From an uncultured Gemmatimonadales bacterium (lineage in GTDB: Bacteria > Gemmatimonadota > Gemmatimonadetes > Gemmatimonadales > Gemmatimonadaceae), in NCBI GenBank assembly GCA_963793305.1, contig CAWBZV010000002.1:352001-416000 (forward strand): a stretch of DNA of 64,000 nt. The letters are read 5' to 3'. The position numbers were made by a program, and so were the translations under genes. The notes under the pieces were generated by a model, which saw only the letters and a list, made by a program, of their open reading frames with translations, searched no databases and was not told where the DNA came from. Shown one piece after another: positions 4,560 through 10,734 of the stretch (position 1 is its first letter; the number at the start of each line of letters is the position of its first letter).

Positions 4560-7500
4560 TCAGACCGCCAAGTGGTCCCCTGGCCGCGCCGCGGCCTCAT
4601 AGAGTACCGGCATGAGGTATACCGAGATCAACAGCCGGGAAAATAGGCCGCCAACGATAACGAGAGCGAAGGGCCGCTGCGAGTCCGTCCCGATACCATG
4701 CGCCAGCGCTGCCGGGAGCAGCCCCAGTGCCGCGACGAGCGCGGTCATCATGATCGGCCGGAGCCGGAGCAGCGCGGCCTGCCGGGCGGCCTCCGGGATA
4801 TCCATGCCCCCCAGACGCAGCTCATTCGCGTACGAAATGTATACAACGGCGGTCTGCACGGAGACGCCGAACAGCGCCAGGAATCCAATGCCCGACGACA
4901 CGGAGAATGGCGTCCCGGTGATCGCCAGCGCCAGCACGCCACCGATGGGATCGGACAGCACGACACCGAGCAATGTGATCAACGGGAACTTGAAGTTGCG
5001 ATAGAGCGCGAACAGCACCGCGATAATAAGAATAAACGTGACGGGCAACACGATCTGCAGCTGCGCCCGCGACGCCGTGTACTCCCGGTATTCACCACCC
5101 CACACGACGTTATAGCCTGACGGCAGGCTGACGTGCTTCGCCACGCGCTGCTGCGCCTCCTCGACGGCGCTCGCCAGATCGCGTCCTTCGACGGAGTACT
5201 GCACGCCGATGTAGCGCGCGTTGTTCTCCCGGTAGATGAATGCCGCGCCGTTCGACACCTGGATATTCGCCAGCTCGCGAATCGGAATCTGCTCGCCCGC
5301 CGGCGTGGCCACGAGGATGTTGCCGATCGCCTCGGGTGTCTCGCGATACTGCGGTGAGAGGCGCACCACGAGATCGAACAGCTTCTCGCCCTGCACGACC
5401 TGCGTGGCCGCACTGCCACCGACCGCGGCCTCGATCAGTCCATTGATATCCGCGACGTTGACACCGTAGCGCGCGATCTTGTCGCGGTCGATATCGACCG
5501 TCAACGCCGGTTGGCCGAGCTCCTGCACGAGCGTCAGATCCGTGATGCCGCGCACCTGCTCCATCTCTTTCTTGATCGCCCGACCCTGCGTTTCGAGTGT
5601 CGTCAGATCGGTCCCGAACACTTTGACGTCCAGAGAGCTCTTGAGCCCCGTCTCAGCCTCATCCACCGCATCCTCGGCGGGCTGCGTGTAGTTGAACGTG
5701 ATGCCGGGAAACGCCGAGAGTTTCTTATTGACGGCCGCGATGAACTCCGGCTTCGTCCGATACGCCCCGTGCCATGTCCCATACGGCGTCAGGCCAACGT
5801 AAAACTCGGCGTTGAAAAATCCCGTTGGGTCCGTCCCGTCATCCGGTCGCCCATGTTCGCAAGCGACAAAGGTGACTTCAGGAAACGATCTCAGGACCGC
5901 CCGGATCTGGGGCACCAGTCGCGACGACTCGTCGAACGAGATCGTATACGGCATCGTCGCCCGCACCCACAACGCTCCTTCGTCCAGCTTCGGCATGAAC
6001 TCGGCGCCAAGGCCGAGCCACAGGGGAATGGTCAACAGAAAGACCAGCACCGACGTGCCGATCGTGATGGCTTTGTGTTGCAGACACCAACCAAGGCCAC
6101 GGTTGTAATGCTTCAGGATCCACTCGAAGACCGGATTCTTGCGATCGCGCACGCCACGTCCCAAGAAGAGCAGGCAGAGTAGCGGAATCAATGTGAGCGT
6201 GACGATCAGCGCGCCGATCAACGCATAGATCGTGGTATCAGCCATCGGGGTGAACAGTCGACCGGAAGGGCCGGACAAGACATAGATCGGCAAGAACCCG
6301 GTGACGATGACCGCCACGGCGTACACGATGGGTCGATCGACTTGGGCGGCGGCGCCGATGATGACCTCGCGCGCGTTGTACGATGTCCCATGCCGCTGCG
6401 CCAACTCTCGATGGATATTCTCCACCATGACCACGGTCGCGTCGACGAGGATGCCGAAGTCGATCGCGCCGATCGAGAGCAGATTCGCCGGAATGTGTCG
6501 CAGATCGAGGCAGATGAACGCGAACAGCAGCGACAGTGGGATCGTGACCGCGACGATGAGCCCGGACCGCACGCTGTAGAGGAAGAATACGAGCACGACG
6601 ACGACGAGCACGATGCCGCGCAGCAGATTGTCCTCGACGATCCGCGTCGTGAAATGAATCAGATCGCTCCGATCGTAGAACGGCTCGATGTGCACGTCGT
6701 GCGGGAGCGTGCGATTGAGCTCGGCGGTCTTCGCCTCGACCGCCTTGAGCACGGTCTGCGCCTGCTCCCCCGTGCGCATCAGCACGACGCCTTCGACCGC
6801 GTCGTTCACCGTGTCGTAGCTGAACTGCCCGAGCCTGGGCGCGTATCCGATGACCACCTGCGCCACGTTCTTCACGAGCACGGGAATCCCGTCCTTCACC
6901 GCGAGGACGATGTTCCCGATGTCCTGGGGCGTCACCACGCGGCCCAGTCCGCGCACGTAGTAGAAGCTGCCGCCTTCGGAATAGAAACCGCCGCCCGAAT
7001 TGTCGTTGTTCGCCGAGAGCGCATTGGCCACGATCGGAACGGTCAGGCCGGCGCCGGCGAGCTTCGTCGGGTCGATGACGACCTGATATTGCATGGTCGG
7101 CCCGCCCAGCGGGGACAGGTCGGCGACGCCAGGCACGGACTTGTACGCCTTCACGATGTCCCAGTCGTCGATCGTCTTGAGCTGCATGGGCGACCGGTCC
7201 GGGCTCTCCAGCACGTACCGATACACGAGCCCGGACGGAGCGGACAGCGGCGACATCGACGGCGAGACGCCGCTCGGCAGCGTCGCGTCTCCGATGCGCT
7301 CGAAGGCCTGCTCGCGCGCGAAATAGTTGTCGGTCCCATCGTCGAACGTCATGATGACGTTCCGAGAGCCCATAGAGCGAGATCGACCGCACGATCTTGA
7401 GGTGCGGGATCCCATTCATCGCCACTTCGACCGGCACCGTGATCAGCCGCTCGACTTCCTCCGTCGCGCGTCCCGGCCACTGCGTGATGATCTCGACCAT

Positions 7501-7635
7501 GGGCGGCGAGAGGTCGGGATACGCGTCCACGGGCAGGCGCGTGAACGACCACACGCCAACCCCGGCCAGGGCGGCGAAGATGATGAGCGTGAGCAGCGGT
7601 TCGGCGAGCGCGGCGCGGACGAGCCGATTGATCAT
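4560..7635 (-). CDS. CusA/CzcA family heavy-metal efflux RND transporter (frameshift at ~7360)
   Basis: N-terminus LPVDAYPDLS..EEVERLITVPVE in the 7635 frame; GAIDFGILVD, EFMPKLDEG, RLRPIMMTA in the 7415 frame. Confidence 0.92.
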
Positions 7636-8783
7636 TATTGACTCTGGGCAAACTGGATGAACAACCCGCCTTCCGTCACGACCTGATCGTTCGGCGCGAG
7701 CCCGCTCAGGATCTCATACTGATCGCCCACCCTGGCACCCAGCGTAATCGAGCGTCGATTGAAGCCACCGTCAGGCTCGGCGACAAAGACGAAGGGGAGG
7801 TTCTCTTCGTCGCGCAGCACGGCCGATACCGGAACCAGCACGCCCGCCCTCGGTCGGTCGGCATGGATCGCGACGCGCACATAGAGATCGCGCTTGAGCA
7901 TCTGCCGATGATTCTCGACGAGGATGCGAACCGCCGTCGCGCGGGTCGACGTATCGACGATCGCGGCGACGTAGTCCACGCGTCCTGGGAACGAGTCCGT
8001 TGACGCGTCGGTCGTGATCACCGCGGACTCGCCGCGATCGACGGAGCTCAGCTGCGATTCGAATACGTTCGCCATCACCCAGACCGTCGAGAGATCGGCG
8101 ATCGTGAAGCACTGCGTCTGGCCGGCCTGAATCACCTGCCCGGGATTGATGAGCTTCTCGACGACGACGCCCTCGATGGGCGCGCGAATGATGCCGCCGA
8201 CGACCGCGGTCGGCTTCCCCTCCTGGATGTCGCGGATCGTCGTGCTGTCGACACCGAACGCGCGCATCTGCTCGATCGCCGCGTCCCGATCGGCCGCGGC
8301 CGACGCCGAGTCGGCGATGGATTGATCGAGGTCGCTCTTCGCGATCGCGCCCGCATCAAACAACTTGCGGTTGAGGGTCGCGATACGGGCCGTGTTCCGC
8401 AGCGCCGTCTGGGCCTTCTGGTACGTGGCGAACCCCTCGGCGAAATCAGGCGAGGTCACACTGGCCAACGGCGTCCCGACGTGCACGTACGTCCCGGTGT
8501 TGACCAGGATACGCGTCACCGGCCCCGAGATCTGCGACAGCACCGGCGTCGACCGGTCACCATTGAAGGCGACGGTTCCGGTCGTGATCACGGTGGGCCG
8601 GAACGTCGTTGGCGCGACCGGTAGTGTGTGAATACGCGCCTTTTGGTCCTCGGTCAGCATGAACGCCGAGGAGGGTTTCTTGGGCGTCGTTGTCGCGGCG
8701 TCCGCCGGCGGCGATCCTTTGCACGCCGTCACGGCCAGGACGGCGAGCAGCGCGAGATGTCTCGCGAGATGTCTATTGTCCAT
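7635..8783 (-). CDS. RND efflux periplasmic adaptor (membrane fusion lipoprotein)
   Basis: Lipobox-like AVTAC; IRAPIEGVV, IADLSTVWV; lies between TolC and RND genes. Confidence 0.9.
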   Translation of the reverse strand: MDNRHLARHLALLAVLAVTACKGSPPADAATTTPKKPSSAFMLTEDQKARIHTLPVAPTTFRPTVITTGTVAFNGDRSTPVLSQISGPVTRILVNTGTYVHVGTPLASVTSPDFAEGFATYQKAQTALRNTARIATLNRKLFDAGAIAKSDLDQSIADSASAAADRDAAIEQMRAFGVDSTTIRDIQEGKPTAVVGGIIRAPIEGVVVEKLINPGQVIQAGQTQCFTIADLSTVWVMANVFESQLSSVDRGESAVITTDASTDSFPGRVDYVAAIVDTSTRATAVRILVENHRQMLKRDLYVRVAIHADRPRAGVLVPVSAVLRDEENLPFVFVAEPDGGFNRRSITLGARVGDQYEILSGLAPNDQVVTEGGLFIQFAQSQ

Positions 8784-10050
8784 GGAATTGAGAGAGAGGG
8801 GCGGCCGCCGCGCGTTCCAGGTTCGCTTCTGCTTGGTTCGCCGCGGCTAACGCGTCAGTGTATTGGCTCTCGGCGGACACGAGATCGCGCCGCGCATCGA
8901 GGACGTTGAGTGCGGATGACCCGCCGAGCCCGTAGCTCGTGGACGCCACCTGGTAGGCGGCGCGCGCCGACGGAAGCAGTTGATCCCGGATATAGATGGC
9001 TTGCTCGAGGGCCGTCGCGGCCGTCGCGTACGACAACCGGACGTCCTGGTCGATCGAGGCGATGAGATCTTTGTACGACGCTTCGAGCTCGCGCTCGTGG
9101 TGGCGCGAATTGCGAATGTCACCGCCCGTGTGCTGCCAGAAGAAGATCGGGACGGGAAACGAGAGCCCGTAGGTCCAAATCGGGAATCGGCTCGGAAACG
9201 CCGCGTCCGGGGCGCCTTGGTCCCACTCGATGCCGCCGACAATGTCCGGCAGCCAAAACTCCTCGGCGAGCGTGGTGGTGGCCTTCGCGCCGGAGATCTG
9301 CGCGCGGAGGCCGGCCAACTCCGGCCGCGCGTCGAGCGCGCTGGCTTCGACCGGCGCGAGCGGCGGCAGCGGCGCGGGCACCGCGAGCGAGTCCGCCGGC
9401 GCAACCCCCAGACCGAGTGGCCGGCCCAGCAATCGGTTGAGCGATGCGCGGGCCGTGAGAATATCGCGGTCGTTGGCGATGAGGGCGTTCTGCGTGCCGG
9501 CCAGGTCGACCTGGGCCCGAATCACGTCGAGCTTCGGAGCCGTGCCCGCGTCGAATCGGGCTTGGGTCTTCTTCAGGAAATCGGCCGACAGATCGCGCGA
9601 TTCCGTGAGGTCCGTATGATGGCGGAGCGCGACGCGCAGCGAGTCGTACGTCTGCGCGGTCTGGGACGCAATCTGCTGCTTGAGCGCCGTGTAGTTCGCC
9701 TGCGCGGTCCCCACGAGCGAGCTGCCGATCGCGTAGTTCAGGCGGAACTTGTCCGGAAACGGAATGCCGATGCTCGCGATGAGTGGCCGCTGCGTGGGCT
9801 GACCGCCCTGCACGATCCAGCTGGCCGAGCCCGTCGGGTCCGGAATCGCCCACTGCGAGACTTTCTGCGCGCGCGCTTCGTCGACTTGCTCGCGTGCGAC
9901 GACGATCTGCGGATTCCGCTTGAGCGCCGTGTCGACCGCTTGGGCGCGCGTCAGCCGCAGTGTGTCTGTCTTACTCGTGTCCGTGAATTGCGCCGATGCG
10001 GTCCGCGCGATGAGCGCAAGGCCGCACCACAACCAAAGTGTCCGTGCCAA
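8773..10050 (-). CDS. TolC/CzcC family outer-membrane efflux protein
   Basis: AVDTALKRNPQI, RFDAGTAPKLDVIRAQ, LNVLDARR; TTG at 10050 chosen for upstream GGGGA and signal peptide (ORF is open to 10158). Confidence 0.88.
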   Translation of the reverse strand: MARTLWLWCGLALIARTASAQFTDTSKTDTLRLTRAQAVDTALKRNPQIVVAREQVDEARAQKVSQWAIPDPTGSASWIVQGGQPTQRPLIASIGIPFPDKFRLNYAIGSSLVGTAQANYTALKQQIASQTAQTYDSLRVALRHHTDLTESRDLSADFLKKTQARFDAGTAPKLDVIRAQVDLAGTQNALIANDRDILTARASLNRLLGRPLGLGVAPADSLAVPAPLPPLAPVEASALDARPELAGLRAQISGAKATTTLAEEFWLPDIVGGIEWDQGAPDAAFPSRFPIWTYGLSFPVPIFFWQHTGGDIRNSRHHERELEASYKDLIASIDQDVRLSYATAATALEQAIYIRDQLLPSARAAYQVASTSYGLGGSSALNVLDARRDLVSAESQYTDALAAANQAEANLERAAAAPLSQFHGQ

Positions 10051-10059
10051 TGGTCCCCC

Positions 10060-10138
10060 GAATGACGGTTTGCGGAGCTCGGCGCAGCCGAGATCATTCC
10101 AACCGACCCGTCGAGCGGCGTAGTGTGCCGCATCGACG
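10060..10138 (-). promoter_or_regulatory. Structured intercistronic RNA between leader ORF and tolC
   Basis: Stem CGTCGA-GCGGC/GCCGC-A-TCGACG (10109-10138); stem GAATGA/TCATTC (10060-10099) enclosing CTCGGC/GCCGAG and abutting the putative RBS. Confidence 0.55.
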
Positions 10139-10164
10139 AGCGGCGGAGCCGCGTTCAAATCCTG

Positions 10165-10476
10165 TCAGACGGGCGGGGCGCGTGAGGTGTAGGTGGGAGC
10201 CGCGACGGTCGGAACCGACCACATCGCGGTGGCGCTGGGAAGAACGATCAGCCGCCGACTGGGCGGCAGCACGGAGGCGCGTTCCGGACGCGCGTGCAGC
10301 GACTGCACGATGCACGCGGGACACGTCGCTTCGTCGTGCGCGTGATGCAACTGCGTGCCGCGCGTCTCGACGTGCGCCGACGCGTCGGGCCCCCGCCACG
10401 ATTCGATCGTGCCGGCGAGTACCATCACCAGTTGGCCGAGCCCGGCCAAAAGAGCGAGGAGTCTCACGCGTCTCAT
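10165..10476 (-). CDS. DUF2946-like (CruR/CutF-type) leader ORF with His/CxxC and C-terminal RAPP motif
   Basis: N-terminal hydrophobic helix; HHAHDEATCPAC; ends PTYTSRAPPV*. Confidence 0.8.
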   Translation of the reverse strand: MRRVRLLALLAGLGQLVMVLAGTIESWRGPDASAHVETRGTQLHHAHDEATCPACIVQSLHARPERASVLPPSRRLIVLPSATAMWSVPTVAAPTYTSRAPPV

Positions 10477-10515
10477 ACCCACCTTACGCTATTGATGACG
10501 ACACGTTGGCGCCAG

Positions 10516-10734
10516 TTACGCCTCGAAATCGCCCGGTCGTCCTCGAACAACCTGACCGCATCTGGGGCAAAAGAGATCGCCGTCGTCCGCCATAGCATAG
10601 TCGAACGGCCGCCCACAGGCGCAGCGATCGCGTAACCCGTCATTGCCGCACAGGAGGCAAAATCGGTCGTCGGACTCGTAGACGCGGAACCGGCCGCAGG
10701 CCTCGCACCGCTTCGTCACCCGCGGCGCAGTCAT
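10516..10734 (-). CDS. Small double zinc-ribbon protein
   Basis: CEAC, CLLC, CAC, CPRC; overlaps the envC stop by 4 nt. Confidence 0.75.
   Translation of the reverse strand: MTAPRVTKRCEACGRFRVYESDDRFCLLCGNDGLRDRCACGRPFDYAMADDGDLFCPRCGQVVRGRPGDFEA

Follow-up and report, generated by a model that had tools for sequence, protein, structure and literature searches.

One Predicted Leader Peptide Heads Either a ZneA-Like RND Pump or a Putative Zinc-Type Importer Operon in Gemmatimonadota

Introduction

The closest described leader peptides respond to copper. In Bordetella pertussis, CruR (Bp2923) responds to Cu and acts through Rho on a TonB importer, and its CxxC and RAPP motifs are 45 ± 2 residues apart; copper relieves its arrest in vivo (PMC9426467). 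The arrest at RAPP is resistant to EF-P, and CruR stalls at RAPP in vitro (PMC12992588). In Rhodobacter capsulatus, copper induces stalling of CutF, whose target is a multicopper oxidase (PMC9973294; 10.1101/2025.02.05.636593). Related accounts include 10.1101/072470 and PMC10783764.

Such leaders are also known upstream of efflux genes. The outer membrane factor (OEP) of RND systems is the commonest neighbor of CutF-like proteins (PMC9973294, text to Fig. 6), and the EMBO J source data list RAPP upstream ORFs (uORFs) before 530 TolC, 620 RND adaptor, and 50 CusA/CzcA genes (PMC12992588). In the same table, some RAPP uORFs precede genes for a "zinc-regulated TonB-dependent receptor" (a porin); the available main text of that paper does not mention zinc or RND, and two motifs of the leader family described below are not among the listed rows of its table. 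In Caulobacter, the DUF2946 gene CC2720 heads the czrCBA operon, which is zinc-induced through Zur (PMC4176598). Both the gene order leader-tolC-MFP-RND and the placement of RAPP or Pro-rich leaders ahead of RND operons have been published. In Cupriavidus metallidurans, both ZniCBA and ZneCBA rise under EDTA starvation, the Zni protein more than its RNA, and their control has been ascribed to antisense RNA (PMC11647595).

Here, we analyzed a leader-pump locus in a 64,000-nt stretch of DNA (the window) from an uncultured Gemmatimonadales bacterium. What is new is the swap between importer and pump behind one leader cassette. In the literature consulted, we found no paper on this swap or on such leaders in this lineage; individual genes may be listed in subscription papers, in File S1 of PMC9973294, in the protein table of PMC9426467, or in several of the EMBO J files.

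A Conserved Leader Peptide Upstream of the Pump Operon

The leader ORF encodes a DUF2946/CruR-like protein of 103 amino acids (10165..10476, minus strand), starting at an ATG at 10476; an alternative GTG at 10482 would add two residues. A first-pass annotation of the sequence had proposed an ORF of about this length with an N-terminal export helix, which agrees with what we found: the hydrophobic helix is present, and the ORF is the only one in the source genome detected by the family profile (E-value = 2.6e-28; runner-up, 0.22). Its match to Pfam DUF2946 (PF11162; E-value = 8e-4, 20.6 bits) falls below the gathering cut-off of 23.7, and this Pfam model matches 31 of 74 leader-family members at E ≤ 0.05. 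Residues 1–26 (10399..10476, minus strand) form a predicted export signal, which corresponds to helix 2–27 of an AlphaFold model and has AxA-type ends in relatives; a hydrophobic N-terminal stretch was observed in 76/76 leaders. Beyond two helices, the model contains no further folded domain (pTM 0.34), and the fold is uninformative. A polar residue in the middle of the export helix, Gln15, is kept in 48/76 pump leaders and 33/40 porin leaders.

The segment HHAHDEATCPAC and a terminal RAPP, both reported by the first-pass annotation, are present, with RAPP (10171..10182, minus strand) lying one codon ahead of the stop codon. Conservation across 76 leaders suggested a metal-binding motif, H35-x-E37...H47-x4-C52-x2-C55 (10312..10374, minus strand), in which C52 is found in 76/76 sequences, H47 in 75/76, C55 in 56/76, E37 in 55/76, and H35 in 53/76. 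The second Cys is absent in about 19–20 of the 76 leaders, and the near-invariant core is H47 plus C52 rather than CxxC. The CxxC motif reads CPAC in the source leader and is present in 57/76 orthologs; the spacing from CxxC to RAPP is 43 residues in the source leader and 43–46 in 56 of the 57 CxxC orthologs.

The C-terminus, a putative arrest motif, is RAPP in 70 of the 76 loci, RGPP in five, and RSPP in one; thus R-x-PP is invariant. Codon usage at this site is also unusual. The last Pro codon is CCC in 49/76 leaders versus 54/168 other Pro-Pro pairs, the first Pro codon is a rare A/T-ending one in 47/76 versus 32/168, and the Arg and Ala codons (in 10171–10182 and its orthologs) likewise favor rare A/T-ending codons. 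It is likely that RAPP stalls the ribosome that translates it.

Orthologs of tolC were found in 19/61 and 75/401 genomes, and the leader precedes the tolC ortholog in 76 of 80 loci; two of the remaining four lack it, one is a spurious match, and one lies at a contig end. One of the 76 (L019, from the unpublished genome G012) is counted here, and nothing rests on it alone. Conservation upstream of homologous operons and of RAPP in orthologs had been put forward as a check on the metal-sensing arrest leader, and the counts given above agree with it; the arrest-leader proposal is supported by conservation in cis and by the CruR-like spacing, but its emphasis on CxxC as the core is not. Some of the closest RND relatives (80–82% identity) lack a leader (L005 and L023; L170, L195–197, and L199). 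Beyond the phylum, where 20 of 35 loci were examined, Acidobacteriota orthologs (L172–L175, L178, and L189) keep a leader of the CxxC-RAPP type, and further leaders occur at L186, L188, L194, and L201, the last with a ZIP gene after the pump; no leader was found in ten of these 20 loci. In two leaderless gammaproteobacterial loci (L185:1708 and L190:1872), a Zur-like half box lies upstream of the pump operon; a Zur-like box before the leader was rejected as a general feature, as it was detected in 2/76 loci, at three mismatches. These comparisons support the view that the ORF is a real, conserved, and apparently exported leader peptide of the CruR/CutF type located in cis to the pump.

The Pump Operon and Its Neighborhood

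The first-pass annotation placed a CzcCBA-type operon downstream of the leader, and we could confirm its three components, all on the minus strand. A TolC/CzcC-type outer membrane factor of 425 amino acids (8773..10050; TTG start at 10050; Pfam OEP, E-value = 4.8e-50) begins 114 nt after the leader in the source genome. It is followed by a membrane fusion protein (MFP; 7635..8783), whose closest solved structure is ZneB (E-value = 3.8e-33 vs. 4e-9 for CusB), and by a CusA/CzcA-family RND protein (4560..7635; TIGR00914, 805 bits with a cut-off of 701), whose closest solved structure is ZneA (668 bits vs. 462 bits for CusA).

The DFG-D-EN motif of exporters in TM4 is intact in the RND protein, and ZneA Glu136 is replaced by Leu. 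Acidic residues occupy the periplasmic positions equivalent to those of ZneA, which we take to be metal ligands there. The Met573-Met623-Met672 triad of CusA (PMC8092243) is replaced by Arg (35/35), Asn (34/35), and Glu (35/35) in the 35 orthologs with an RND from 40 loci examined. By these residues, the pump appears to be of the divalent-cation CzcA/ZneA type and not of the CusA Cu/Ag type, and a copper/CusA reading was rejected on the replaced triad. The leader of this pump also heads zinc-type importers (see below), which points away from copper detoxification.

A one-base frameshift interrupts the RND gene near 7360. Near-identical contigs from runs X1, X2, and X4 lack the extra base (four runs were checked, and the X3 contig has no coverage of it; X1 and X2 may belong to the source study and X4 to another). 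The frameshift is probably an assembly error, and a real pseudogene is unlikely given three of four runs without the base. A 12-base difference near 8751 was seen in the same runs.

Upstream of the leader are a 72-amino-acid zinc-ribbon gene, an M23 peptidase, and ftsEX, and a PEP carboxykinase-like gene lies downstream of the operon. The 72-amino-acid gene, a double zinc ribbon, occupies 10516–10734 (minus strand) between the M23 peptidase and the leader. As noted in the first pass, none of these neighbors in the window is a metal-responsive regulator, and a conserved neighboring regulator was discarded as a candidate after only one AraC and one CDF gene appeared among 25 upstream ORFs scanned. 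The named relatives at 80–99% RND identity are Gemmatimonadota assemblies.

Promoter and RNA Structure of the Leader Region

The leader likely opens its own transcript, because a TAnnnT hexamer precedes its start by 3–10 nt in 56/76 loci, compared with 4/76 tolC starts and 6/680 shifted positions, in a set where leader starts were partly chosen by the same motif. At the source locus, a likely −10 hexamer (10486..10491, minus strand) lies 9 nt before the ATG, consistent with a leaderless or near-leaderless start, and a likely −35-like hexamer, CTGGCG, is at 10510..10515 (minus strand), with similar hexamers visible by eye upstream of many orthologs. A sigma-70 consensus scan found no promoter at this locus. 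The leaderless start was rejected as a peculiarity of the leader: 174 of the 857 long ORFs of the source genome (about 20%) have TAnnnT 3–10 nt before an early ATG, suggesting that leaderless mRNAs are common there.

Two hairpins had been noted between leader and tolC, the second of which was tied to the tolC ribosome-binding site. Both indeed fold (z = −3.6) within an 80-nt palindromic repeat (10074..10153, minus strand). This repeat is dispersed, with 41 matches in the source genome at E ≤ 1e-3 (self included), and is absent from a sister genome (RND 99% identical; spacer 41 nt) and from the X2 contig. It is polymorphic at the locus among close strains, and it has no Rfam match; the Rfam search gave one chance match (E-value = 0.13). 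The inner hairpins were therefore rejected as a switch, as the repeat is dispersed and missing in close strains.

In the folding ensemble, the tolC Shine-Dalgarno sequence (SD) is paired by the Pro-Pro and stop codons of the leader and not by the second hairpin. The predicted stem has its 5′ arm in the Pro-Pro-Val-stop codons (10164..10177, minus strand) and its 3′ arm at 10054..10066 (minus strand), which includes the SD GGGGGA (10059–10054); the repeat lies inside its loop. In these computations, the energy needed to open the SD falls by over 1 kcal/mol in 50/76 loci when a ribosome-sized block is placed at the Pro codons, versus 11/76 for a control block placed 20 codons upstream; at the source locus it falls from 10.5 to 6.1. 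The SD pairing partners peak at +6 to +22 from the Arg codon. The gain is ≤1 kcal/mol in the other 26/76, and one third of the loci have a weak stem or none. Shuffled spacers (two shuffles each) still gained more than 1 kcal/mol in 29/76, because the Pro codons are rich in C and any G-rich SD pairs with them readily, and the real spacer beats its own shuffles in 52. The conserved RNA element is thus the predicted stem of the tolC SD and the Pro-Pro-stop codons, and stalling is therefore predicted to switch the operon on. The last 120 nt of the leader are C-rich, with C>G skew above 0.15 in 69/76 3′ ends, partly from the Pro codons.

The Same Leader Precedes Importer Operons

The leader profile matches 226/401 genomes of the phylum and 1,882 protein clusters. 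We fetched 60 of 284 profile matches, chosen from 150 listed as those not beside a tolC ortholog, and these loci hold 61 leaders: 40 before a 450-amino-acid porin, 19 before TonB-dependent receptor genes, and two without a readable neighbor. All 59 further downstream genes typed encode one of these two proteins, and none encodes a Sec, Bam, or Dsb protein. The porin (L086:1797–3146, alignment A3) belongs to the "zinc-regulated TonB-dependent receptor" family, which lacks a Pfam match, ends in a His motif, and is modeled as a porin-type barrel. The gene after the porin is of the ZnuA family in 37/37 cases scanned and is followed by an ABC-3 permease in 5/5 scanned. The ZnuA-family protein has AztC as its best NCBIfam match, below the cut-off of that family, and the ZnuA family also includes Mn/Fe binders. 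The porin operons seen contain ZnuA and ZnuB, with no ATPase gene within the stretch read.

Leaders of the porin and TonB receptor genes have the same motif and spacing as pump leaders, and we found no distinguishing motif; about seven start codons in the importer set look mis-called. The predicted sign is also the same, as the stall footprint gives a gain before 27/40 porin genes (control, 4/40) and 11/19 TonB receptor genes (control, 4/19). In a quick tree, with 59 of 132 branches open, pump and importer labels interleave; 20 changes of the pump label are required, and well-supported branches force at least nine of them. Within one genus, a pump locus (G016) and an importer locus (G091) are 73% identical over 504 nt, from the promoter to the end of the signal peptide. 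Among 12 pump/importer pairs, picked as near kin, both flanks are common in seven (four lineages), one is rearranged, and four have nothing in common. From gene content and flanks, the same leader heads what appears to be either a ZneA-like pump or a porin-ZnuA-ZnuB importer, at the same chromosomal site in four lineages.

Other arrangements were also seen. In three tandem cassettes (L125, L131, and L144), the RND gene is immediately followed by another leader, which heads a TonB receptor gene or a porin-ZnuA operon. In L149 (genome G338), an intact porin lies directly upstream of the leader-pump operon and no ZnuA was found in that genome; the slot thus holds porin and pump, and the same slot in a genus mate holds porin and ZnuAB.

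Distribution of the Pump, the Porin, and Zinc-Related Genes

The ZneA-like RND ortholog is present in 73/401 genomes and the porin in at least 173/401, with both in five. Within the order, the porin occurs in 5/72 pump genomes versus 125/194 others. In 16 mixed genera, 15.7 overlaps were expected and five observed; none of 20,000 permutations gave five or fewer, and the permutation P-value is 0.00025 with genus sizes padded, since nonmatching genomes were partly unlisted, and with kin that are not independent. Matches to the ZnuA family occur in 7/74 pump genomes, two of them weak, and none was found in the source genome.

As a control, other CusA/CzcA pumps were counted in 35 genomes of each group, pump and porin; with 55 matches in either group, they display no avoidance, and a habitat explanation (efflux-rich vs. 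uptake-rich genomes) is not supported by these equal counts. Physical replacement at one site can itself give the exclusion. ZIP genes, considered as a discriminating importer, differ little between the pump and porin groups (28/35 and 32/35). The pump is not obliged to supply zinc, since both systems, pump and porin, are missing from 69 of 266 genomes in the order and ZIP importers are found with either. No Fur-family match was found in the source genome (92% complete) or its three genus mates, and the source genome has two DtxR-family genes. Loss of Zur was rejected as a general cause, given a Fur-family match in 58/70 relatives.

A Model for the Leader and Its Alternatives

Our preferred explanation, which we regard as about evenly poised between right and wrong, is that a default RAPP arrest is relieved by zinc, and that scarcity of zinc turns on the ZneA-like pump, as is reported for ZniCBA and ZneCBA of Cupriavidus under EDTA; the importer operon whose place it takes in sister species would behave alike. 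A promoter directly ahead of the leader would produce a single near-leaderless transcript, on which the ribosome would arrest by default, Pro3 occupying the P site as described for CruR. The stalled ribosome would cover the 5′ arm of the stem and leave the tolC SD open (on), an opening computed here from the footprint, and it may also mask a C-rich Rho site, so that stalling would likewise mean on. Zinc, the presumed ligand of the His/Glu/Cys motif, would drive folding some 45 residues from the active site, pull the chain free, and let the stem re-form (off). The same leader fronts a zinc-type importer in sister species, and therefore the pump is predicted to act in zinc scarcity and not in excess; this location of the leader, together with the lack of the Met triad, points to zinc and scarcity and not to copper detoxification. 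By its TM4 motif, the pump may be a normal proton-driven exporter that helps the cell economize on zinc, either by removing competing cations or by recycling zinc in the periplasm, and because that motif is kept, either role is likelier than import. However, few changes could suffice to reverse the response of a cassette.

That possibility leads to the opposite sign, which we consider possible but doubtful. Pulling by Sec would free the arrest by default, and a metal that competes or is in excess (Cd, Co, Ni, Cu, or Zn itself) would bind the motif, hold the stall, and so switch on detoxification by the pump. The importer and the pump would then be two answers to one mis-metallation stress, or the pump cassettes would have inverted their response. 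Such a mechanism, including the SD stem, has been published for CutF (10.1101/2022.11.11.516240; PMC9973294; 10.1101/2025.02.05.636593), the zinc-induced DUF2946-czrCBA operon of Caulobacter (PMC4176598) is a precedent, and the export signal in 76/76 leaders and the intact TM4 motif are consistent with it. The acidic residues at ZneA-equivalent positions, which presumably act as ligands, also fit. On the other hand, the leader motif and spacing are of the CruR type, no sequence difference sets pump leaders apart from importer leaders, each repeated swap would need an inversion, and zinc-induced stalling would switch importers on in zinc excess.

It is improbable that the leader monitors secretion or periplasmic redox, by SecM/ApdP-like pulling or a Cys52-Cys55 disulfide, and not metal. 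Secretion monitors likewise combine an export signal with RAPP, and the first downstream genes (TolC, porin, and TonB receptor) all encode outer-membrane barrels; however, His47 is near-invariant and His35/Glu37 are conserved, the second Cys is missing from 20/76 leaders, and the 59 typed genes include no Sec, Bam, or Dsb gene. We give similarly little credence to a leader that is no switch at all, being a small secreted metal-binding protein active in trans, as CzcI might be, or a constitutive stall that keeps the SD open. CzcI is a CutF-like protein before czcCBA, and close RND relatives do without a leader. Against this, the Pro motif is missing from CzcI but R-x-PP is present in all 76 leaders, the Cys-to-RAPP spacing is fixed, the synonymous codons at RAPP are unusual, and the AlphaFold model offers two helices only (pTM 0.34).

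Returning to zinc-relieved arrest, a stronger version, which we think unlikely, is that this RND subfamily is itself a zinc-acquisition system that has repeatedly replaced porin-ZnuA-ZnuB behind the leader. The pump would then supply zinc, whether it strips and recycles zinc complexes of the periplasm or transports the metal inward, in cells without a ZnuA-family protein and, in the source genus, without Fur/Zur.

Implications

Metal-sensing arrest leaders have been shown experimentally only for copper, and this locus is relevant to the sign of their control before efflux pumps. The natural swaps provide a matched pair of cassettes, importer versus pump, with which the sensed metal and the direction of its effect can be compared. 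They also touch on the puzzle of ZniCBA and ZneCBA in Cupriavidus, namely why some heavy-metal RND pumps appear in starvation. If our preferred explanation is true, CzcA-like genes of this subfamily, usually taken as resistance markers in soil metagenomes, would mark zinc limitation.

Comparison with Known Systems

The first-pass annotation knew of no description of such control in this lineage, on which we found no paper. Leaders of this kind are catalogued before TolC/RND genes (530 RAPP uORFs before TolC). The catalogued CutF-like and RAPP uORFs share the gene order described here, whereas the available parts of those sources give no mechanism or sign for RND targets and mention no swap with importers. 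ZneCBA and ZniCBA include the closest solved RND and MFP structures (PDB 4K0E and 3LNN) and are a known system made under metal starvation; unlike the present locus, no leader peptide is mentioned for them in the available text, and ZneA Glu136 is Leu here.

Like CutF, the leader is exported by prediction, and stalling is computed to melt a stem that hides the SD. Unlike CutF, which has CxxxC, PPP, and a multicopper oxidase target, it has CxxC, RAPP, and an RND target. The similarity to CruR is closer in form: both have an export signal, CxxC, a C-terminal RAPP at a spacing of 43–46 (45 in CruR), a position as the first gene of the operon, a C-rich 3′ half (skew 0.23 vs. 0.06), and a predicted stall that means on. 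In contrast to CruR, the leader described here contains an additional His/Glu cluster, a dispensable second Cys, and a predicted SD stem in which the Pro codons supply the other arm, and its targets are an RND pump or porin-ZnuAB. Just short of the Pfam cut-off, it is predicted to act like CruR with a CutF-type output.
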